NCBI GenBank assembly: GCA_964540975.1
Contig: CAZIOQ010000021.1
Coordinates: forward strand, 1-52,111
Length of the DNA: 52,111 bases
Source: an uncultured Gammaproteobacteria bacterium
GTDB taxonomy: Bacteria; Patescibacteriota; Microgenomatia; UBA12405; UBA6130
Reading direction: 5' to 3'
Positions 3,277 to 43,566 of this stretch are shown piece after piece. Position 1 is the stretch's first letter. Each line of letters starts with the position of its first letter. Under the pieces are notes generated by a model, which was given only the letters and a program-made list of their open reading frames with translations, searched no databases and was not told where the DNA came from. The translations under genes and the position numbers were made by a program.

Positions 3277-5025
3277 TTGTTGTATAATATGCTAATGCTT
3301 TACTCGCAATTATTTGCCAAAACCACAAAAACTGTGCCGGCTGAAGCCAAAATTGCCAGTCACAAGTTTTTATACAAAGCTGGATTTATTAGGCGAATTT
3401 CCACCGGACGCTGGGCTTTTTTGCCGTTGGGGATGAGGGTTTGGGAAAAAATTTATGAAGTGATTGATGAAGAAATGCGGGCCATTGGCTGTCAAAAAGT
3501 AGTTGTTCCCACTTTACACCCGATCGAAATCTGGCAAGCAACAAACCGTGATAAAGCTTTTGGTGAGGAAATGCTCGTGGTTTCCGACCATCATGGAGCA
3601 AAATTTGCTATTGGGTCAACCGCCGAAGGTTTGATGGTTGAGCTGGTAAAAATGTTTCGGCCTTCTTATAAAGATCTGCCGATTTTGATTTATCAGTTTT
3701 CCCAAAAATTTCGTGATGATAAAAGACCGCGGGGAGGAATTATGCGAGTCAGAGAATTTATGATGAAAGATGCCTATAGTTTTGCGGAGAGTGAAAAACA
3801 GGCTTTTGAAGTTTATTGGAAATTTTATAATGCCTATTTGAAAATTGCTCACCGGTTGGAGTTGCCAGTGATTCCGGTCGAAGCCGATTCTGGGGCGATT
3901 GGAGGCACCCTTTCTCACGAATTTCAATTGGAATCGGCGGCGGGTGACCAGACTTTTTTTGTTTGCGATAAATGCGGCTATGCCGCTAATATCGAAAAAG
4001 CCGAGTTTGAAAGGGTAGCGATAAATCCTCAAGAGAAGATAAAGCCTTTTCGGATTATTTCCCAGCCCGAATGGGTTTGTACGATGGAAGACAATCTTAA
4101 ACATTACCGCCAGCCTTTGTGGAGGTATTTGAAAAATGTCGCTTTCAAGGATGAAAAAGGCCGAATTATTATTGCTTCTTTGCGGGGAGACCAGAATGTT
4201 AATGAAGTAAAATTAAAAAGAGTTTTGGGGGCAGAAACTTTAACGCCTGCAGATGAAAATGACTTGCGTTGCCTTGGCACCAAACCCGGTTGGGTTCATT
4301 CTTGGGGAATTAAGGGGGTGACTTTTGTTGGCGATTTGGGATTGCCTGCTGTTAAAAATTATATTGGTGGGCAGAAAGAAAAAACAACCGATGCGATAAA
4401 TGTCAATTACGGTCGAGACTTTAAATATAAGATGCTGAGCGATATCGCCGAGGCAAAAGATGGCGATTTGTGCGCCCGCTGCAAAAAGGGAAGACTTCGC
4501 CAAAAAACCGGCTTTGAATGGGGGCATTGTTTCAAACAAGATCATTTTTACACAAAACCCCAGGGTGGTTATTATACCGATAAGTCTGGCCGGCAAAAGC
4601 TTTTGTGGATGGGAGCTTATGGAATTAGTATCGAGCGGACAATGGCCTGTCTCGTTGAGGCTCACCATGATCAGCGGGGAATTATTTGGCCAAAATCGGT
4701 AGCACCGTTTATTGCCCATTTGGTTTTAATTCCTAATTTGCCATTCCGAAGGAATCCCGCGAAGCGGGCATCCGCGACTAAGAAATTTGCTGATAAAGTT
4801 TACAAAGAGTTGCTAAAAGCCGGGGTGGAGGTATTTTATGATGACCGGGAGGATGTTTCTGCTGGAGAAAAATTTGCTGATGCTGATTTGATCGGAATTC
4901 CAGTTCGCCTGGTAGTTTCTGAAAAGACCAAAGACAAAGTTGAATGGAAAGAACGCCCCCAGAGAAAAATAGAGTGGTTAAAATTAGAAGAGGTAATTAA
5001 AAGATTAGCCATACCAAAGGTATAA
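3277..5025 (+). CDS. proS: Prolyl-tRNA synthetase (bacterial type)
   Basis: Class II aaRS motifs (FRDDKRPRGGIMRVREFMMKDAYSF; GAYGISIERT) and a C-terminal anticodon-binding domain (FADADLIGIPVRLVV). AGGAGG lies 5 nt upstream of the TTG at 3277; in-frame ATGs at 3289 and 3295 are alternative starts. Confidence 0.92.
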   Translation: MLYNMLMLYSQLFAKTTKTVPAEAKIASHKFLYKAGFIRRISTGRWAFLPLGMRVWEKIYEVIDEEMRAIGCQKVVVPTLHPIEIWQATNRDKAFGEEMLVVSDHHGAKFAIGSTAEGLMVELVKMFRPSYKDLPILIYQFSQKFRDDKRPRGGIMRVREFMMKDAYSFAESEKQAFEVYWKFYNAYLKIAHRLELPVIPVEADSGAIGGTLSHEFQLESAAGDQTFFVCDKCGYAANIEKAEFERVAINPQEKIKPFRIISQPEWVCTMEDNLKHYRQPLWRYLKNVAFKDEKGRIIIASLRGDQNVNEVKLKRVLGAETLTPADENDLRCLGTKPGWVHSWGIKGVTFVGDLGLPAVKNYIGGQKEKTTDAINVNYGRDFKYKMLSDIAEAKDGDLCARCKKGRLRQKTGFEWGHCFKQDHFYTKPQGGYYTDKSGRQKLLWMGAYGISIERTMACLVEAHHDQRGIIWPKSVAPFIAHLVLIPNLPFRRNPAKRASATKKFADKVYKELLKAGVEVFYDDREDVSAGEKFADADLIGIPVRLVVSEKTKDKVEWKERPQRKIEWLKLEEVIKRLAIPKV

Positions 5026-5175
5026 ATAGAGTTGCCTTGCCACCCTTCAACCCCGGCCAGACAAAACTTATCGACCCCACCGATCCTAGAAGGAGGAAGT
5101 TATTTCCTCCTAACGAGAGATTAAAAAATAATTACTTGATAATTTGTCAAAATTTGTCAAAATTTTTTAATCCCG

Positions 5176-6452: not shown

Positions 6453-8465
6453 ATGAAAAAACTATTTGTTGTTGAATCGCCAACCAAGGCCAGAACAATC
6501 AGTAATTTTTTAAAAGACCAGGCTCAAATTTTGGCCACCATGGGTCATATTAGAGATTTGCCAAAATCAAGATTCGGAATTAAGGTAATAGAAAATGGCG
6601 AGATTAAATTTGAACCACAATATAAAATTATTCCCCAAAAACGAGAAATTGTCGCCAAAGTCAAAGAAGCAGTCAAAAAAGCTGACCAAGTAATTTTGGC
6701 CACCGATCCTGATCGGGAAGGCGAGGCCATTGCTTATCATTTGGTTGTTTTAACCCAGAAAAAAGCTTTTCAGGAGGAGAAAAGGGAAAATGAGAAATTT
6801 GTCCGGATAGTTTTTTATGAAATTACTCCTCAGGCAATTCAAAAGGCCTTAGAAAATCCACGGTCTTTAGATTTGAATTTGGTTAATGCTCAACAAGCAA
6901 GACGGGTTTTGGATAGAATTGTTGGTTATAAGCTGTCACCACTTTTGTGGCGAAAAGTCCGCCGGGGGTTATCAGCGGGCAGGGTTCAGTCAATTGCCTT
7001 AAGGTTAATCGTTGAGAGGGAAAGAGAAATTTTAAGATTTAAAGGCGAAAAATTTTACCGAATTTTTGCTGGTTTTGAAAAACAAGAGAAAGATTTTACT
7101 GCTGAATTGGTGAAAATTAAAGATGAATCAGTAGAAAAAACTGAATCAAAAAAACTTTTCGCTGGTCAACATAAAGTGGTGAAAACTATTTTTGACACTG
7201 CCGATAAAGCTTTGGTGGTAATTAAAAGCTTGTCGGTAACCCCTTTTGTCGAAAACTTAGAAGAAAAGGAAATTTTCAAACAGCCTTTACCACCGTTTAC
7301 TACTTCAACCTTGCAACAAACAGCGGCCAGAAAATTTTCTTGGAGTTCAAAGTTAACAATGCAGATCGCCCAAGGACTTTATGAACAAGGTTTAATCACT
7401 TATCATCGCACTGATTCGACCAACTTAAATTTTGCCGCCATTGGTCAACTGAGAAAAGTGATTGAATTAAAGTTCGGCAAGAATTACTTGCCTTTAAAGC
7501 CGCGAATATATAAAACAAAATCAAAATTAGCCCAAGAAGCCCATGAAGCAATCAGGCCAACAAAACCAGATCTGGAAAAGCCAACAAATCTTGATCAGAG
7601 AGCCAGCCGTCTTTATCGCTTAATTTGGCAAAGAGCTTTAGCTTGTCAAATGCAACCAGCAAAACTAGCAATTACCAATGTTTGGATTAAGGATGGTGAT
7701 TATCTTTTTAAAACGAGCGGGACAAGATTACTCTTTGATGGCTTTACTAAAATATATCCAGTATTTTTTCTTAAGATCGAACTGCCAAAACTGGTTAAAG
7801 GAGAAAGATTAGATTATTTGGCTTTAGGTATTAGTGAATATCAAACTCAACCGCCACCGCGTTACCACGAAGCAAGCTTAATTGCTGTTTTAGAAAAAGA
7901 AGGAATTGGTCGGCCTTCAACCTATGCGCCCATTATTTCGATTATTCAACAACGGCTGTATGTGGAAAAAGAAGAAGGTAAATTTAAACCAACCAAATTG
8001 GGGGTGGCAGTCAACGATTTTTTGGTTGAATATTTCCCCAAAATCATTGATCTTCCATTTACTGCTCAAATGGAAGACGATCTCGATCTGATTGCTCAAG
8101 GGAAAAAGGAGTGGACAAAGACAGTAGCTGAATTTTGGCGGCCTTTTATTAATGAAATTGAAAAGACAAAAGAAAATTCAAAGCGGGTAAAAGTCGAAGA
8201 AGAGAAAGTTGACGAAAGATGTCCGGAGTGTCAAAAGGGAGAATTAGTGGTTAGAATAGGCAAGTTTGGCAAATTTATTGCCTGTTCCCGATTTCCTGAT
8301 TGTCGCTACACCCGGCCTTATCTTCAACAAACAAATTTTAGCTGTCCAGATTGTGGGGCGCCGGCGGTGATCAGAAAAACGAAAAAAGGCAAGATGTTTT
8401 ATGGTTGCAGTCGTTGGCCTTCTTGTAAATGGGCTTCTTGGCGAAAGCCAAAAAATAACCAGTGA
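6453..8465 (+). CDS. topA: DNA topoisomerase I
   Basis: TOPRIM N-terminus (LFVVESPTKA, ATDPDREGEAIA), active-site region GLITYHRTDS, and two C-terminal C4 zinc ribbons. The ATG at 6453 is preceded by GGGGGAGGA; the track's 6435 start overlaps the dprA end. Confidence 0.93.
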   Translation: MKKLFVVESPTKARTISNFLKDQAQILATMGHIRDLPKSRFGIKVIENGEIKFEPQYKIIPQKREIVAKVKEAVKKADQVILATDPDREGEAIAYHLVVLTQKKAFQEEKRENEKFVRIVFYEITPQAIQKALENPRSLDLNLVNAQQARRVLDRIVGYKLSPLLWRKVRRGLSAGRVQSIALRLIVEREREILRFKGEKFYRIFAGFEKQEKDFTAELVKIKDESVEKTESKKLFAGQHKVVKTIFDTADKALVVIKSLSVTPFVENLEEKEIFKQPLPPFTTSTLQQTAARKFSWSSKLTMQIAQGLYEQGLITYHRTDSTNLNFAAIGQLRKVIELKFGKNYLPLKPRIYKTKSKLAQEAHEAIRPTKPDLEKPTNLDQRASRLYRLIWQRALACQMQPAKLAITNVWIKDGDYLFKTSGTRLLFDGFTKIYPVFFLKIELPKLVKGERLDYLALGISEYQTQPPPRYHEASLIAVLEKEGIGRPSTYAPIISIIQQRLYVEKEEGKFKPTKLGVAVNDFLVEYFPKIIDLPFTAQMEDDLDLIAQGKKEWTKTVAEFWRPFINEIEKTKENSKRVKVEEEKVDERCPECQKGELVVRIGKFGKFIACSRFPDCRYTRPYLQQTNFSCPDCGAPAVIRKTKKGKMFYGCSRWPSCKWASWRKPKNNQ

Positions 8466-28176: not shown

Positions 28177-28215
28177 AACTTTTTAGGCGATCAGCAAAAA
28201 CCTGTTTTCTAAAAA

Positions 28216-28449
28216 ATGATTAAGAAAAGAAAAAAAGAATTAAGAAAAAAGGTGCTCAAGAATTGCCTTTTTTGTCAGGAAAAGAAGCGTCCTGAGTGGC
28301 GGCAATCAAGTCAGTTGGCCAAATTTCTTTCTCCACGAGGAAGAATTCTGTCTCGATCAATGACCGGACTTTGTGCCAAACACCAGAAGCAATTAACTTT
28401 AGCGATTAAACACGCAAGGCATCTGGCCCTCTTGCCTTTTGTGATTTGA
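28216..28449 (+). CDS. rpsR: 30S ribosomal protein S18
   Basis: [40 protein letters not shown]. Confidence 0.88.
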
Positions 28450-28542
28450 GTGAGCCTCTTTGTCCAGCCGGGCTTGCTTTAAAGCAGGTTAATGAATCAG
28501 GGATTGTTTTTATCCTTTTTCTATTCTAAACTTTAGTTAATA

Positions 28543-29278: not shown

Positions 29279-30535
29279 ATGAGTAAAATAAAAAAAATCA
29301 CCCATCAACAGTTACTTTTCTTCACCCGGGCTTTTTTCTTCGCCCTTTTCTTTTTATTACTGGGAGGGATAGTTGGTTTTCAATTAGCCAAAAAAGATTT
29401 GGTAACGCCAATTTCTTTCCCCTCTCAAGAAAAAACAGATATGTCCTTGTTTTGGTATACTTGGAATCTTTTAGAGGAAAAATATCTTAAAAAAACATCG
29501 TTGGATCCGCAAAAAATGATTTATGGAGCAATTTCAGGAATGGTTTCTTCCCTCGAAGATCCTTATACTATTTTTTTACCTCCTGAGGAAAATAAGATTA
29601 CCAAAGAAGATTTAAATGGCGAATTTGGGGGAGTAGGAATTCAGTTAGGCTATAAAGAGAAGATGTTAGCGGTTATTTCTCCTTTAGAAAATACACCAGC
29701 CCAAAAAGCAGGCATCAAAGCCGGCGATATTATTCTAAAAATTCAAGATGAGTCAAAAAAATTAGATATTAGCACCGAAAAAATTTCCTTACCAGAAGCG
29801 ATCCAGGCAATTAGAGGTCCAGAAGGAACCAAAATTCAATTAACAATTTTAAGAGAAGGAATAGAAAAGCCTTTTAGCGTAGAAATTGTCAGAGCAAAAA
29901 TTACTCTTCCCACCGTTGTTTGGCGGCAAATTGATTATCAAGGAAGAAAAATCGCCTATGTTCAAGTTTTAAGATTTGCCCAAATAATGGAAAAACAATG
30001 GTTTGATTGGTTAAAAACAGTGGCGGTTTTGAAAAAAGATCCTCAATTTGCCGGAGTGATTTTGGATTTAAGAAATAATCCGGGTGGTTATCTGAATGGG
30101 GCAGTGTTTTTAGCCAGTGAGTTTTTAAAAGAAGGCGTGGTTGTGGAACAAGAATACAGTTCCGGGAAGAAAGATTATTATCGGGTAACCAGAAAAGGTA
30201 GTTTGCTGGACGTTCCTTTGGTAGTCTTGATTAATCAAGGGTCAGCCTCGGCCTCAGAGATTTTAGCCGGGGCATTGCAGTATTACCAAAGAGCAATTTT
30301 GATTGGAGAAAAAACTTTTGGTAAAGGAACAGTCCAGGAACCACAAGAATTACCCCGGGGAGCTGGTTTACATATTACTATTTCCCGTTGGCTTTTGCCC
30401 GGAGAAGGAGACATTGATCAAAAGGGAGTTTTTCCTGATATTGAAGTGAAATCAACTGATATTGAAAACAACCAGGATGACTTGGTGCTTGAAAAAGCCA
30501 AAGAAGAGATTATAAAATTAAAAGGGATAGAGTAA
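29279..30535 (+). CDS. ctpA: Carboxy-terminal processing peptidase (S41, Ctp/Prc family) with PDZ
   Basis: FGGVGIQL, PDZ PAQKAGIKAGDIILKI, LDLRNNPGGYL, catalytic GSASASEILAGAL, and GEKTFGKGTVQ. Confidence 0.88.
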   Translation: MSKIKKITHQQLLFFTRAFFFALFFLLLGGIVGFQLAKKDLVTPISFPSQEKTDMSLFWYTWNLLEEKYLKKTSLDPQKMIYGAISGMVSSLEDPYTIFLPPEENKITKEDLNGEFGGVGIQLGYKEKMLAVISPLENTPAQKAGIKAGDIILKIQDESKKLDISTEKISLPEAIQAIRGPEGTKIQLTILREGIEKPFSVEIVRAKITLPTVVWRQIDYQGRKIAYVQVLRFAQIMEKQWFDWLKTVAVLKKDPQFAGVILDLRNNPGGYLNGAVFLASEFLKEGVVVEQEYSSGKKDYYRVTRKGSLLDVPLVVLINQGSASASEILAGALQYYQRAILIGEKTFGKGTVQEPQELPRGAGLHITISRWLLPGEGDIDQKGVFPDIEVKSTDIENNQDDLVLEKAKEEIIKLKGIE

Positions 30536-30546
30536 TGACATTCTCT

Positions 30547-30592
30547 CCGTCCCAGGATCGGCGGGGTTATTTTAAGGCGCGAAAATAAAACC
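30547..30592 (+). repeat. GC-rich hairpin + T-run + AAGGCGCGAAAA element, copy 1 (also a plausible ctpA terminator)
   Basis: CCGTCCCAGGATCGGCGGGGTTATTTTAAGGCGCGAAAATAAAACC. It is near-identical to the reverse complement of 34160-34204. Confidence 0.75.
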
Positions 30593-30665
30593 GAAATAAA
30601 ACAAGTTAAAAGGCGAAACCTTTTCCTTAAAAGATAGTATTTAAAGGGCGAAAAAAAGAAAAAAA

Positions 30666-34111: not shown

Positions 34112-34159
34112 TTAATTAATATTTTACCCTAAATTGGGAAGAAAGTATATTTTTCAAAT

Positions 34160-34204
34160 GGTTTATTTCGCGCCTTAAAATAACCCCCCGATCCTAAGGC
34201 GGGG
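34160..34204 (-). repeat. GC-rich hairpin + T-run + AAGGCGCGAAA element, copy 2 (inverted relative to copy 1)
   Basis: The minus strand reads CCCCGCCTTAGGATCGGGGGGTTATTTTAAGGCGCGAAATAAACC. It lies between the end of the 34257 gene and the hisS start. Confidence 0.75.
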
Positions 34205-34256
34205 ATGAATAAGGCAAGAAAAGACGGCCGAGGCCACCTAAGGGGTGAGGAGGACG

Positions 34257-40747: not shown

Positions 40748-41530
40748 ATGAGTAAGCAAAAAAAATTTATCTTATCCTCTTTTCTTTTAACAATAGTCTT
40801 TATTCTAGCCCAAATTAGCAAGTCTTTTTTATCTCCTTTTTTTATTTCGTTTTTTTTGATTTTTCTTGCTAGTTTAATTTTGTTTTTTGTTTTTTATTCT
40901 TTAGTTTCTTCGGTGAAAAGGCTAATCCTTTTGATCACCCTGCCTCTGGGACTTCTTCTGGCAGTAAATTTTTTTTATAATTTATGGCCTTCGGCTTTAG
41001 TTTGGCGAGCAATTTTAATTTTATTTCTTTTTGATGGGATATACGCTTCAGTTTTAGTCACCAATATTTTTTTGGTTTCTTTAGAATTCAAAAAAGTGCC
41101 CCTTTATCGAGCTGCCTTTACGATTGGATTCATTTTAATCCTTTTGGAGTTATTTCTTTTTTATAATTTTATCTTTTCTTTCAAATTTTACCCTTGGACT
41201 AATGCCTTCTTGATTTTTCTGGTTTCTTGGCCTTTATTATTCCATTTCTTTTGGTCTGCTGCTATTTCTGAAAAGGAGGCTGATAACCAGCAGCTAATAA
41301 TGTTTAGTTCAGTAGGCAGTTGGTTTTTAAGTCAGCTTGGTTTGGCGATTTCTTTTTGGCCGGTGAATGTTGGTTTGGCTTCTTTGTATCTGGTTAGTTT
41401 TGCCTATGTTTTGGGAGGAATGATTCAAGCAGCAATAAAAGGCAAGCTTTTTCAACGGACATTTTGGGAATATTTTTGGGTAGGAGTAGGTTCTTTGGTT
41501 GCTCTTTTTCTCCTGACAACCATTTTTTAA
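40748..41530 (+). CDS. Polytopic integral membrane protein, unknown function
   Basis: 6-8 hydrophobic segments and Phe/Leu-rich composition. No recognised motif. Confidence 0.55.
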   Translation: MSKQKKFILSSFLLTIVFILAQISKSFLSPFFISFFLIFLASLILFFVFYSLVSSVKRLILLITLPLGLLLAVNFFYNLWPSALVWRAILILFLFDGIYASVLVTNIFLVSLEFKKVPLYRAAFTIGFILILLELFLFYNFIFSFKFYPWTNAFLIFLVSWPLLFHFFWSAAISEKEADNQQLIMFSSVGSWFLSQLGLAISFWPVNVGLASLYLVSFAYVLGGMIQAAIKGKLFQRTFWEYFWVGVGSLVALFLLTTIF

Positions 41531-42496
41531 TTTAATAATTTTTTTAAGTTATTAATTTAAAATAATTTTTTTGGAATTAAAGATGGTTGGTCCGAGAAGC
41601 TTTAAAGATCAGGATGGGTGAGAGGGGATAGGGGAATAAGATTAAGCCTATAGTGTTAAGCTTATATCCTATAATGTAAATAAAGTTTCACGAAAACTAT
41701 AGGCCACTTTTCACGAAAACTGATATTTAGCGATTGGCATCTTTAATCGCTAATGATCCCTCAAGTTTATGTTTTTCCCTAAAAATAGGCATAATCTTAA
41801 TTAATATTTTTGATATAGTTTGACTATGTCGTCTCCTTGCCGATCCTCTGGAAAATTGTTTTTGTGGAAAACCTTTTTTATTTATATGGAGATGGGGTGT
41901 TTTTAAGAAGAGATGGTTAGAATCAATATTGCTTATAAAAACTTCGCTTTTTAGGAACGGAAAGGCTTCATTTTTGTCTCTTAGAATGCTCCACCCTTCC
42001 AGAGGACAAGATAAGACAGACGAGAAGGGGGAGAGGGTTTTTCAGAGAGTCGCATAATGTTCCTTTTACGACGTCAAGTTGGCGATCAAAAAAGAGGAGT
42101 AGTTTTTTCAAGTTTAAAATAATTTTTAAATAAATTTTTGAATAAAAATTATTTTTAATATTTGAGTTAATTTTATTTCCTTTTTAGCTAAAACCTTATA
42201 TTCTTATGTTTCTTATATTTTGAAATTTAAAGATTAATTATCAAGATTGTTTTTGGTTCTACTCCCCTTTCTGAGTTTTTGCTAGAAGAAGAGCAAAAGG
42301 TTTATTGATATCGACCTCACCAAAGGCCGCTTAAGACGTTTTTAGACCTAAGGCTTATATTATAAAAATGTTTTTTGATGTTATTTTTTCGAGGAAAAAG
42401 CAGATTTTTGTCTATCCTTAATTCCTTGTTGTTGATCTTTGCTTTATTTTGCATTTCTCAATTTCTCATTTTACTCATTACTTAATTTTTTATAAA

Positions 42497-42526
42497 CTGG
42501 CAAATTATTTTTGAATTATTTGGCAG
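42497..42526. other. Candidate dif-like core site (11-8-11 imperfect palindrome)
   Basis: CTGGCAAATTA-TTTTTGAA-TTATTTGGCAG. The arms match 9/11 as inverted repeats. The site lies 81 nt upstream of the xer-type recombinase gene. Assignment is by architecture only. Confidence 0.25.
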
Positions 42527-42565
42527 GGTTTAAAGTTCTAATCTAATAAAAAATTAAACTGAGGC

Positions 42566-42594
42566 TTGACAAAAGAAAAATTAACAATTAAACT
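42566..42594 (+). promoter_or_regulatory. Candidate promoter of the recombinase gene (TTGACA-17-TAAACT)
   Basis: Consensus -35 at 42566-42571, a 17-nt spacer, and -10 TAAACT at 42589-42594. The ATG is 12 nt further on with no Shine-Dalgarno sequence, so the leader is very short. Confidence 0.45.
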
Positions 42595-42606
42595 CTTAAA
42601 AGCTTA

Positions 42607-43566
42607 ATGTCGCACAATATCGGGGAAAAAATGAATAATTCAATTGATTTTTGGCGAGACAAATTTTTATCTTATTTAGAAATTGAAAAAAATCGTTCTC
42701 CTTTAACTAGCCGTAACTATAACCTTTATCTTAAAAGATTTATCCGATTTTTAGAGCAAGAATTAGGCCACTCCCCCACCCTACAAGATATCCAGATTGA
42801 AAATATCCGGAAATTTAGACTTTTTTTATCAAGAAAAAAAAATCACAAAGGAAATTTTTTAAAAAAAATTACCCAAGCTTATCATTTGATTGCCTTACGT
42901 TCATTTTTAAGATGGTTAATAAAAAATGATTTGAAGGTATTAGCACCAGAGAAAATCGAATTGCCAAAAACAGAAACCAGGTCCTTAAAATTTTTGACTT
43001 TAGAACAGGTAGAAAGATTACTTAATCAGCCAACGATTTCTAATATTATTGGTTTAAGAGATAGAGCGATTTTAGAGACGCTTTTTTCTACTGGATTGCG
43101 GGTTAGCGAGTTAGTCTCTTTGAATCGTGATCAGATCAATTTTAAATCAGGAGAATTGGGAGTGATTGGTAAAGGAGGAAGACCGCGATTAGTTTTTTTA
43201 AGTAAAAGAGCCCGCTATTGGCTTGAGAGATATTTTGTTAGTCGAAATGAGAAATACTCTCCTTGTTTTATTCGTTATTCTGGCAAAAAAGAGGAGATTA
43301 CTAATCCAGAGTCGTTAAGATTAACTCCTAGGTCAATTCAAAGAATGATTGAAAAATACAGCCGACGGGCTGGTATTCCAATTAAAGTCACTCCTCATGT
43401 TTTAAGACATAGTTTTGCCACTGATTTACTTTTTTCAGGAGCAGATCTCCGTTCAGTGCAAGAGCTTTTGGGCCACAAAAATATTGCCACCACCCAAGTT
43501 TATACCCATGTGACGAATAAGCATTTAAGAGAAATTCATCAAAAGTTTCATAGTGGGAATAAATAA
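42607..43566 (+). CDS. Tyrosine site-specific recombinase, XerC/XerD family
   Basis: N-terminal SAM-like domain (YLEIEKNRSPLTSRNY). Catalytic residue contexts: TGLRVSEL (R), GKGGRPR (K), HVLRHSFAT (HxxR), LLGHKNIATTQVYTHV (H...Y). Confidence 0.88.
   Translation: MSHNIGEKMNNSIDFWRDKFLSYLEIEKNRSPLTSRNYNLYLKRFIRFLEQELGHSPTLQDIQIENIRKFRLFLSRKKNHKGNFLKKITQAYHLIALRSFLRWLIKNDLKVLAPEKIELPKTETRSLKFLTLEQVERLLNQPTISNIIGLRDRAILETLFSTGLRVSELVSLNRDQINFKSGELGVIGKGGRPRLVFLSKRARYWLERYFVSRNEKYSPCFIRYSGKKEEITNPESLRLTPRSIQRMIEKYSRRAGIPIKVTPHVLRHSFATDLLFSGADLRSVQELLGHKNIATTQVYTHVTNKHLREIHQKFHSGNK

Follow-up and report, generated by a model that had tools for sequence, protein, structure and literature searches.

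The 52,111-nt contig CAZIOQ010000021.1 (assembly GCA_964540975.1; the whole contig is referred to as the window) contains a stretch of 1.1 kb without protein-coding genes directly upstream of xer, a gene encoding a Xer-type tyrosine recombinase. This gap is very probably the chromosome dimer-resolution (dif) locus of a bacterium belonging to the Microgenomates group of the Patescibacteria. It holds a short site with two near-identical inverted arms around a centre of 6 base pairs (bp), which is conserved beside xer in about 100 related loci and is also used as attachment site by inovirus-like elements (Table 1). In the mechanism proposed here, monomers of the adjacent Xer would bind the two arms and exchange strands across the 6-bp centre, and this exchange would convert chromosome dimers to monomers at the replication terminus. 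Xer bound at a single arm located in front of xer could in addition autoregulate the gene. An earlier interpretation made from the letters only (the sequence-only reading) had listed a dif region served by the adjacent Xer as one of three candidate explanations of the gap, and this is the one that the evidence bears out. One of the GC-richer islands it described, 41950-42075, does contain the site, but the site itself had not been located and none of the repeats that were pointed out is identical to it.

The comparison is based on 160 related loci, 80 from genomes and 80 from metagenomes, with flanks of 4-8 kb. Relatives of the window Xer in the GTDB species genomes all belong to the Patescibacteria, mostly to the Microgenomates group, and include Shapirobacteria, Beckwithbacteria, Curtissbacteria, Gottesmanbacteria, and Woesebacteria. 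The best Xer identity among these genomes is 75%, and the metagenome scan gave no relative above this value; a full-length alignment of the window's gap is thus not possible. When the gaps of the relatives were compared all-versus-all using blastn, a block of about 30 nt displaying 86-96% identity was found in nearly every locus. The consensus of this block is GTCGCACAATGTATCTTTTGCGAC, a pattern form of the full site is GTCGYAMAATNNNNCTTTTRCGAC, and the window copy of the 24-mer is GTCGCATAATGTTCCTTTTACGAC. The site is present in 51/80 genome loci and in 51/80 metagenome loci. There is one site per locus, except for a weak extra match with six mismatches in L053, and it is found on the xer strand everywhere except in one borderline case, also with six mismatches (L029). 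It is always upstream of xer, at a distance of 1 to ~3500 nt. In the 52 kb of the window the site is unique even when three mismatches are allowed, while none is expected by chance and none was found in 100 shuffles.

Position counts and a logo were made from the 93 unique, that is non-identical, loci. Positions 1-10 (GTCGCACAAT) and 15-24 (CTTTTGCGAC) are near-invariant, positions 11-14 vary (R-W-W-N), and the information falls sharply outside the 24-mer. Read as a recombinase core, the left arm is GTCGCACAA and the right arm TTTTGCGAC, with T-RWWN-C as the centre (GTCGCAyAA / TrwwnC / TTTTrCGAC). The two arms form inverted repeats of 9 bp on either side of the 6-bp centre, a layout known from dif sites. 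They differ at one conserved position, with C at position 7 and T at position 18 in 84/93 loci. Judged from the sequence, this near-symmetry is consistent with one protein binding both arms, but it is not a proof of it. The core CGCAcAATGTATcTTtTG resembles that of Escherichia coli dif, CGCAtAATGTATaTTaTG within the full site GGTGCGCATAATGTATATTATGTTAAAT; compared by eye with this sequence, 12 of the 15 core positions and approximately 16-17 of 28 positions overall are identical. Archaeal dif sites have been accepted with 14-18 matches out of 28 to the bacterial consensus (PMC2958812).

Table 1. Coordinates of the features discussed, in the window unless otherwise indicated (a point in the strand column means that no strand is assigned).
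Feature	Position	Strand	Details
Whole region without open reading frames	41531..42630	.	Between the gene for a DUF5656-like membrane protein (40748-41530) and the probable xer start at 42631
Putative dif core	42049..42072	+	Left arm GTCGCATAA 42049-42057, centre TGTTCC 42058-42063, right arm TTTTACGAC 42064-42072
xer, XerD/XerC/XerA-like tyrosine recombinase	42631..43566	+	311 amino acids from the probable true start
Candidate sigma-70-type xer promoter	42566..42594	+	TTGACA-17 nt-TAAACT, 10/12 matches
Xer-arm half-site GTCGCACAAT	42609..42618	+	Left arm and first centre base; between promoter and xer start codon
Inovirus-like prophages with full and hybrid site	IMG/VR contigs L173, L185, L187, L192, L194, L196, L198		5.1-5.9 kb
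Module A, strand-specific DNA motif cluster	41615..41815	+	nhmmer profile from alignment A1
Purine-rich block GGATGGGTGAGAGGGGATAGGG	41612..41633	+	Consensus GGGGAAGAGGGGAGAGG; just 3' of the upstream gene; alignments A1 and A2
CCTATAGT ... ATATCCTATAAT motifs	41647..41677	+	Consensus ATATCCTATAAT; alignments of the relatives
Direct repeat TTTCACGAAAACT (41686, 41709) around CTATAGG	41684..41721	+	Consensus TTTTCACGAAAAyTATAGG-N4-TTTTCACGA
Palindrome TTAGCGATT-N9-AATCGCTAA	41727..41753	.	Consensus TTAGCA-N12-14-TGCTAA
TTGATATAGTTTGAC	41810..41824	+	Family motif TTTGATATAGTT, which in relatives is frequently present as two copies 11 nt apart
DnaA-box-like 9-mer TTTTCCACA	41863..41871	-	One mismatch from TTATCCACA; 186 nt upstream of dif
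Extremely AT-rich tract	42085..42260	.	Directly 3' of dif; GC 2.5-20%

The gap is bordered on the left by a gene encoding a hydrophobic protein of 260 amino acids and on the right by the recombinase gene, beyond which gyrA and gyrB are found on the opposite strand. As had been noted earlier, 41531-42606 contains no open reading frame (ORF) of at least 60 amino acids on either strand, the longest ones being 42-47 amino acids with TTG or ATG starts. The ATG at 42607 is where the ORF of xer begins mechanically. Alignments with homologues of the recombinase start only at residue 9 (MNNSIDFW), the ATG at 42631 has a GGGGA six bases 5' of it, and a conserved DNA motif overlaps the eight codons that begin with ATG 42607, codons 1-4 coinciding with the Xer half-site ATGTCGCACAAT. 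Since the homologues start at residue 9 and the codons following ATG 42607 overlap this motif, the right edge has been moved; the mechanical start is probably wrong, and the non-coding stretch probably runs to 42630. It has also been claimed that this is the sole large non-coding gap in the window, and this holds. Using a threshold of 80 amino acids, the other ORF-free stretch longer than 200 nt is 28177-28542, and as an S18-like ORF of 77 amino acids fills it, 41531-42630 is the single large gap. This ORF (28216-28449), situated 3' of a gene similar to that encoding the single-stranded DNA-binding protein (SSB), was identified by eye from its translation as similar to ribosomal protein S18.

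Many of the relatives display the same arrangement, a + strand gene encoding about 260 amino acids, followed by 0.8-1.8 kb without ORFs and then xer. Because this order recurs, the gap is counted as a conserved feature and not as an accident of one genome. The upstream gene of the relatives matches DUF5656, and its product is a polytopic membrane protein in which no DNA-binding domain is recognisable.

A scan of IMG/VR using the degenerate 24-mer identified 38 viral contigs, each with one full site. No close Xer homologue is found within the fetched stretches of these contigs, and one of the 38 has a distant tyrosine-recombinase-like match of 26% identity. A Zot-like assembly ATPase is a hallmark of filamentous phages, and such an inovirus ATPase is encoded by 20/38 contigs; the count was obtained by tblastn with two representatives, both of which match phrog_197 and, above cut-off, Pfam PF05707. 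Seven contigs, 9-11 kb in length, have the Zot region between two directly oriented sites 5.1-5.9 kb apart. One of these is a full site (GTCGCACAATATATCTTTTACGAC), while the other is a hybrid with the same left arm and centre (GTCGCACAATATATC) followed by an unrelated right arm, the divergence starting right after the centre. On sequence grounds the full/hybrid pair has the attL/attR pattern of Xer-mediated integration as known from integrative mobile elements exploiting Xer (IMEX), for example the filamentous phages of Vibrio, where a dif-like attP would have recombined with the host dif. The pairings of the left, phage-side flanks differ between the contigs, which suggests that different IMEX elements are arrayed in tandem at a single dif. 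Inoviruses have been predicted earlier in the candidate phyla radiation (PMC6813254).

The xer product contains the Pfam domains Phage_integrase (PF00589) and SAM-like N (PF02899). When compared to the NCBIfam models it scores 259 bits for XerD and 257 bits for XerC, both below the equivalog cut-offs, while it passes the XerA_Arch cut-off (224 bits vs. 220) and is far from that of XerS (129 bits vs. 267). Among the structures in the PDB it matches E. coli XerD (1a0p) and Pyrococcus abyssi XerA (4a8e, 151 bits) best; XerH (5jjv) is matched with E=3e-11, compared to 4e-45 for XerD.

Between the candidate promoter and the start codon of xer there is a single Xer arm. Its 10-mer is found twice in the 52 kb when up to one mismatch is allowed, once in dif and once here. 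A half-site of the form GTCG[CT]A[CA]A[AT]T is present within 320 nt upstream of xer in 94/138 unique loci, while the background is 0.15 per kb. It often abuts a TTGACA -35 box in the relatives, and in 38 of the 94 loci TTGA follows 0-4 nt after it. In the Saccharibacteria-type loci (L061-L080) the arm variant GTCGCAAAAT is located directly at the xer start, at 0-12 nt on its upstream side, and precedes a TATGAT-type -10 box, although a full dif is not found within 8 kb. Conservation of the half-site operator thus reaches further than that of the linkage between dif and xer. The simplest reading is that one Xer monomer would bind the promoter half-site and autoregulate xer.

Some relatives contain additional genes or repeats between dif and xer. 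The Shapirobacteria metagenome-assembled genome (MAG) L002 has an insert of 2.95 kb encoding a glycosyltransferase/zeta-toxin-like kinase fusion and a radical-SAM protein. It is flanked by direct repeats of the half-site and -35 box (GCGTCGCACAATCTTGACAG) at 1020-1055 and 3975-4010, which suggests a cassette-like gain of cargo at Xer half-sites. L012, L020, and L023 contain different ordinary genes in this position, and in L024 a perfect duplication 204 nt apart (7640-7700 and 7844-7904), holding the Xer half-site (CAAATAGATAATGTCGTACAATATTATATAAGAACCTATCGTTTAAGACGAC), is found there.

The site probably lies at the replication terminus. The cumulative GC skew of the window has its maximum at 43-44 kb and then falls, and the genes switch from the + to the - strand at 43566/43567. 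In about 50 loci centred on the site, the + strand accounts for 84% of the ORF length to the left and the - strand for 73% to the right. The + strand skew is higher on the left side in 36/37 loci, and it falls by approximately 0.08 across the site with gene strand held constant. The G-rich tracts immediately beside dif were considered as FtsK-orienting polar sequences (KOPS), a reading that was rejected because KOPS would point towards dif and these tracts do the opposite. No ftsK gene was detected in those ORFs of the window that had been scanned. The 40 kb to the left of dif is unusually rich in genes for DNA metabolism, encoding MgsA, DprA, topoisomerase I, DnaX, DnaB, a DksA/TraR zinc-finger protein, and YebC. 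These genes are followed by xer, gyrA, and gyrB, and the whole series lies at 1866-48101 of the window; neither dnaA nor dnaN is found among the 30 largest ORFs.

Several points weigh against the assignment of the gap as a dif locus at the terminus. The pooled strand-controlled + strand skew falls without changing sign, from 0.09 to 0.019 for - strand genes and from 0.20 to 0.11 for + strand genes, and the terminus call thus rests mainly on the convergence of gene orientation and on the skew peak of the window. The window site differs from the family consensus at four positions; two of these are in the variable centre, while the others (T at position 7 and A at position 20) are seen in other loci as well. 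The copy number applies to 52 kb of this genome and to the 4-8 kb flanks of the relatives, and the view of possible Xer paralogues is likewise that given by the 52 kb. The evidence for recombination at the site is comparative. Furthermore, dif requires about 30 bp while the gap is 1.1 kb, and dimer resolution as it is known leaves the upstream motif module and the DnaA box unexplained.

This upstream module, module A, consists of motifs of the protein-binding type and ends in the DnaA box ~180 bp from dif. Loci matching its profile number 36; the match is on the + strand in all of them and ~250-400 nt 5' of dif. It stays with dif also where cargo puts xer 2.6-3.5 kb away (L002 and L020), and its blocks are both strand-specific and locus-specific. 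RNAalifold predicts no RNA structure for the module (-1.5 kcal/mol for the + strand and -2.6 kcal/mol for the - strand), and an inspection of alignments A2 and A4 by eye gave no consistent -35/-10 pair on either strand. TCCTATAAT is found in 34/87 loci, at about -329 from dif. TTTCACGAA is counted 49 times in the 500-nt stretch 5' of dif, compared to seven times in 970 kb elsewhere. TGATATAGT is present in 65/87 loci, and the 500-nt stretch has 68 copies of the TGATATAGT/TTTGATATAGTT motif on the + strand vs. 27 copies elsewhere. As for the palindrome of the module, only a 4-bp core is kept and there are mismatches on both strands, and it is thus unconvincing as an RNA helix.

A DnaA-box-like 9-mer is situated between module A and dif. 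Its + strand forms, TTGTGGATAAC or TGTGGAAAAC, are the reverse complements of the DnaA box TTATCCACA or of TTTTCCACA. TGTGGAWAA is found in 67/93 unique loci, and 56 of those have it at -193 to -156 from dif. Beckwithbacteria-like loci contain two further perfect TTATCCACA boxes, 74 nt apart and 30-135 nt upstream of xer (L016, L019, L027, L031-L033, L042, L058, L094, L100, L103, L108, L114, L117, L124, and others). These boxes adjoin CCTATAGT or TTGATATATCAA, the same motif vocabulary in inverted orientation. Some relatives have three perfect DnaA boxes within ~800 bp, while the window lacks the pair upstream of xer. TTTTCACGAAAA has some likeness to parS and to the CodY box, but it appears to match half a parS only, and CodY is not known to be a regulator in the Patescibacteria.

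It seems unlikely, although worth considering, that the flanking modules (the DnaA boxes, TTGATATAGTT, CCTATAAT, and TTTTCACGAAAA) are a functional part of the system and not promoter clutter. Candidate roles may be DnaA control of xer, a DnaA-binding locus at the terminus, or accessory sequences for the recombination synapse. If so, duplication of a terminus DnaA locus, as the last event of replication, would couple completion of replication and dimer resolution to the control of initiation by a datA/DARS-like logic, and the modules together with the Xer half-site operator would constitute a regulatory architecture around dif specific for the Patescibacteria.

The base composition of the gap is mosaic, as the sequence-only reading had observed. 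The GC content is 45-52% at 41580-41640, 41980-42060, and 42300-42360, as opposed to 2.5-20% at 42100-42260. The relatives likewise have 9-mers of only A and T at +70 to +150 from dif. A simple terminator scan gave no terminator in the gap. Most of the short repeats noted earlier are indeed present, and they are denser here than in other parts of the window. CTTATAT indeed occurs four times (41661, 42195, 42212, and 42354), while 0.19 copies are expected from its density in the window. The motif AGATGG[TG][TG] is exact at three of its four proposed positions (41581, 41890, and 41911), but the fourth, at about 41612, reads GGATGGGT. Four palindromes had been proposed, and TTTC-N2-3-GAAA is present at 41686, 41709, and 42387. 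The AGATGGKK and CTTATAT repeats were considered as functional elements; since they are missing from the blocks conserved in the relatives, no function is given to them.

The conserved 24-mer can also be looked upon as RNA. The gap would then encode one or more structured non-coding RNAs, with the 24-mer as a hairpin having a 6-bp stem and a 12-nt loop, closed by pairing between CTCCCT and GGGGAGG and ending in a U-run. Hairpin folding is possible for the 24-mer. In many loci it is preceded at 60-100 nt by a pyrimidine-rich tract of the CTCCCT type and followed at 20-40 nt by a purine-rich one of the GGGAGG type, with a CTTCGG motif between the two tracts in some relatives. A T-run comes next in several lineages, among them that of the window (42094-42110). 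Structured RNAs had been proposed also from the sequence alone. Neither Rfam nor covariation lends them support. The gap is without a match at the gathering threshold and gives only noise at E values up to 10, the gaps of nine relatives are without Rfam matches as well, and searches of the whole window, of the gap with permissive settings, and of nine related loci returned tRNAs only. RNAalifold applied to dif +/-100 nt (21 sequences) gives -7.7 kcal/mol with the invariant palindrome as the only structure, a covariation term of 0, and zero compensatory pairs.

The substitutions in the arms also speak against a stem. At the arm pair 5/20 the 93 loci have C-G in 62 cases, C.A in 19, T.G in nine, and T-A in three. 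The double change T-A is thus seen three times where 2.8 are expected if the arms change independently, and the many C.A combinations are mismatches on either strand. A conserved C/U mismatch (7/18) lies within the would-be extended stem. In a duplex-energy test, flanks from the same locus pair with -26.4 kcal/mol, compared to -25.7 kcal/mol for flanks from different loci (p=0.19). In addition, the same arm occurs alone beside -35 boxes, and full and hybrid copies flank prophages, which is explained only by a DNA recombination site. As the arms change independently, with neither covariation nor lineage-specific pairing of the flanks, they are read as protein-binding sites and not as an RNA stem, and an RNA function of the gap is regarded as very improbable.

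Slightly less probable still is an oriC-like origin, in which the DnaA boxes and an AT-rich unwinding tract would be placed near gyrB/gyrA and dnaB. The DnaA-box-like 9-mer at a fixed distance from the site in 67/93 loci, the two extra perfect TTATCCACA boxes upstream of xer in Beckwithbacteria-like relatives, the tract at 42100-42260 with its GC content of 2.5-20%, and the replication genes nearby are all compatible with this. The polarity is nevertheless that of a terminus: the genes to the left and to the right are oriented towards the gap, the cumulative GC skew reaches a maximum here and not a minimum, and an origin in this position would put most genes head-on to replication. No dnaA or dnaN is found among the 30 largest window ORFs using Pfam, and tblastn with a DnaA query detected no dnaA in the window or in the 160 loci. 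The single box of the window moreover has one mismatch.

It has also been suggested that the gap is the decayed remnant of an integrated element, and a pseudogene of a protein would leave a similar trace. Dif regions are integration hot spots, the genes between dif and xer vary in the relatives, and inovirus-like elements integrate at this very site. When the gap was compared to the 160 related loci by tblastx there were, however, zero matches, and the conserved blocks are without a coding-type pattern. The same ordered motifs and architecture are kept across genomes in which Xer is only 52-75% identical. The gap of the window has no second full or hybrid site but only the half-site at the 5' end of xer, the position of which is itself conserved. 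A remnant is accordingly among the two least probable of the explanations considered. Equally improbable is that the palindrome and half-sites are operators of an ordinary transcription factor regulating xer and its neighbours, since although half-sites abutting -35 boxes and a palindrome with single arms near promoters are typical of repressors too, the 9+6+9 geometry with its variable 4-nt centre and dif-core similarity is typical of tyrosine-recombinase core sites, and a pure operator does not predict the site on integrase-less inovirus-like elements or a full/hybrid pair diverging exactly after the centre.

The window contains another intergenic repeat element, which is the source of the CCGATCCT and CCACCCTTC motifs that the gap had been said to share with other intergenic spots. 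These motifs do recur elsewhere (5040/5080, 30554, and 34188), but the gap has short pieces of them only (41840 and 41991). The repeat consists of ATTTCGCGCCTTAAAATAACCCCnCCGATCCT and a short G-rich complement at 30554 (-) and 34188 (+), antisense to the flanking genes, and a partial copy (CCACCCTTC ... CCCCACCGATCCT) is found at 5040-5087, upstream of dprA. The elements span 30530-30600 (-), 34150-34215 (+), and 5035-5095 (+). They may be small RNAs, terminators, or elements similar to repetitive extragenic palindromic (REP) sequences.

If the gap is a dif locus as proposed, a testable dif site and its cognate Xer become available for the Microgenomates branch of the candidate phyla radiation. 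When MAG assemblies of these organisms are checked or oriented, the site could serve directly as a marker of the terminus, and it would be an anchor for locating integrated filamentous-phage-like elements that do not encode their own Xer homologue. The half-site and the DnaA-box modules could further give insight into how dimer resolution is linked to the end of replication in ultra-small bacteria. The limited literature searched gave no account of chromosome dimer resolution in the Patescibacteria, and within the same search the leading Xer/dif literature does not mention the candidate phyla radiation. The locus is thus a known kind of system (Xer/dif) in a lineage where it is apparently undescribed.

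For XerS/difSL of streptococci and lactococci and XerH/difH of Helicobacter and Campylobacter, dif adjoins the recombinase gene as "a single module" (PMC5357621). The locus described here resembles these systems in the linkage of the site to the recombinase gene, in its near-symmetrical arms, and in its terminus-like position. However, the 311-amino acid protein falls outside both the XerS and XerH families by score, difSL has a centre of 11 bp compared to 6 bp here, and dif is found 0.3-3.5 kb from xer while it abuts the gene in the XerS and XerH modules. Because the protein is XerD/XerC/XerA-like and the centre is 6 bp, the system is not filed under these families.

The system shares with E. 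coli XerCD/dif the two inverted arms around a 6-bp centre and a close core (CGCAyAATGTAT...TTG), and XerD and XerC are the best protein matches of the recombinase. The C-terminal LREIHQ of Xer aligns with the LRQLHQ region by which XerD contacts FtsK-gamma. While E. coli dif has distinct XerC and XerD arms, the arms are near-identical in the present site, and the outer right arm is GCGAC instead of TTAAAT. The equivalog cut-offs of XerC and XerD are moreover not reached by the recombinase. Further differences are the linkage of xer to dif, the half-site at the promoter of xer, and the conserved DnaA-box modules on the flanks of dif. As to archaeal XerA/dif, it is similar in that a single recombinase, as is also proposed here, acts on a highly symmetrical site, and the window protein passes the XerA_Arch cut-off. 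The dif sites of Thermococcales likewise have conserved AT-rich flanks and are not next to xerA (PMC2958812). The present system differs in having a bacterial host and in the linkage of dif to xer. XerA acts without FtsK, whereas the cultivated Patescibacterium TM7x has an annotated ftsK.

The sites cer and psi have accessory sequences of ~180 bp beside the XerC arm, and XerD-binding half-sites (XDS) are found at the terminus of Bacillus subtilis. The conserved module of ~200 bp, found on the left-arm side only and at a constrained distance from the core, is reminiscent of the accessory sequences of cer and psi. It is, however, separated from the core by 160-430 bp, and the motifs in it (DnaA box, TTGATATAGTT, TTTTCACGAAAA, and CCTATAAT) are unlike the ArgR, PepA, and ArcA sites. 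The likeness to XDS consists of isolated single arms near the terminus; the half-sites of the present system are, however, situated at the xer promoter and not dispersed.

The inovirus-like elements resemble CTX-phi, VGJ-phi, TLC-phi, and other filamentous phages of the IMEX type, which insert at dif by means of the host Xer; they are Zot-encoding elements of 5-6 kb that carry the site without a Xer homologue, and their integrated copies are likewise flanked by a full and a hybrid site. No such element is found in the window itself. TLC-type attP has a degenerate arm, and the attP implied here is similar, with a good left arm and centre and a degenerate right arm. Unlike for those phages, the hosts here are probably not proteobacteria. 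Judged from the comparisons above, the locus goes beyond textbook Xer/dif in three putative features, the half-site at the xer promoter, the DnaA-box modules at a fixed distance from dif, and the integrase-less inovirus-like users of the site.

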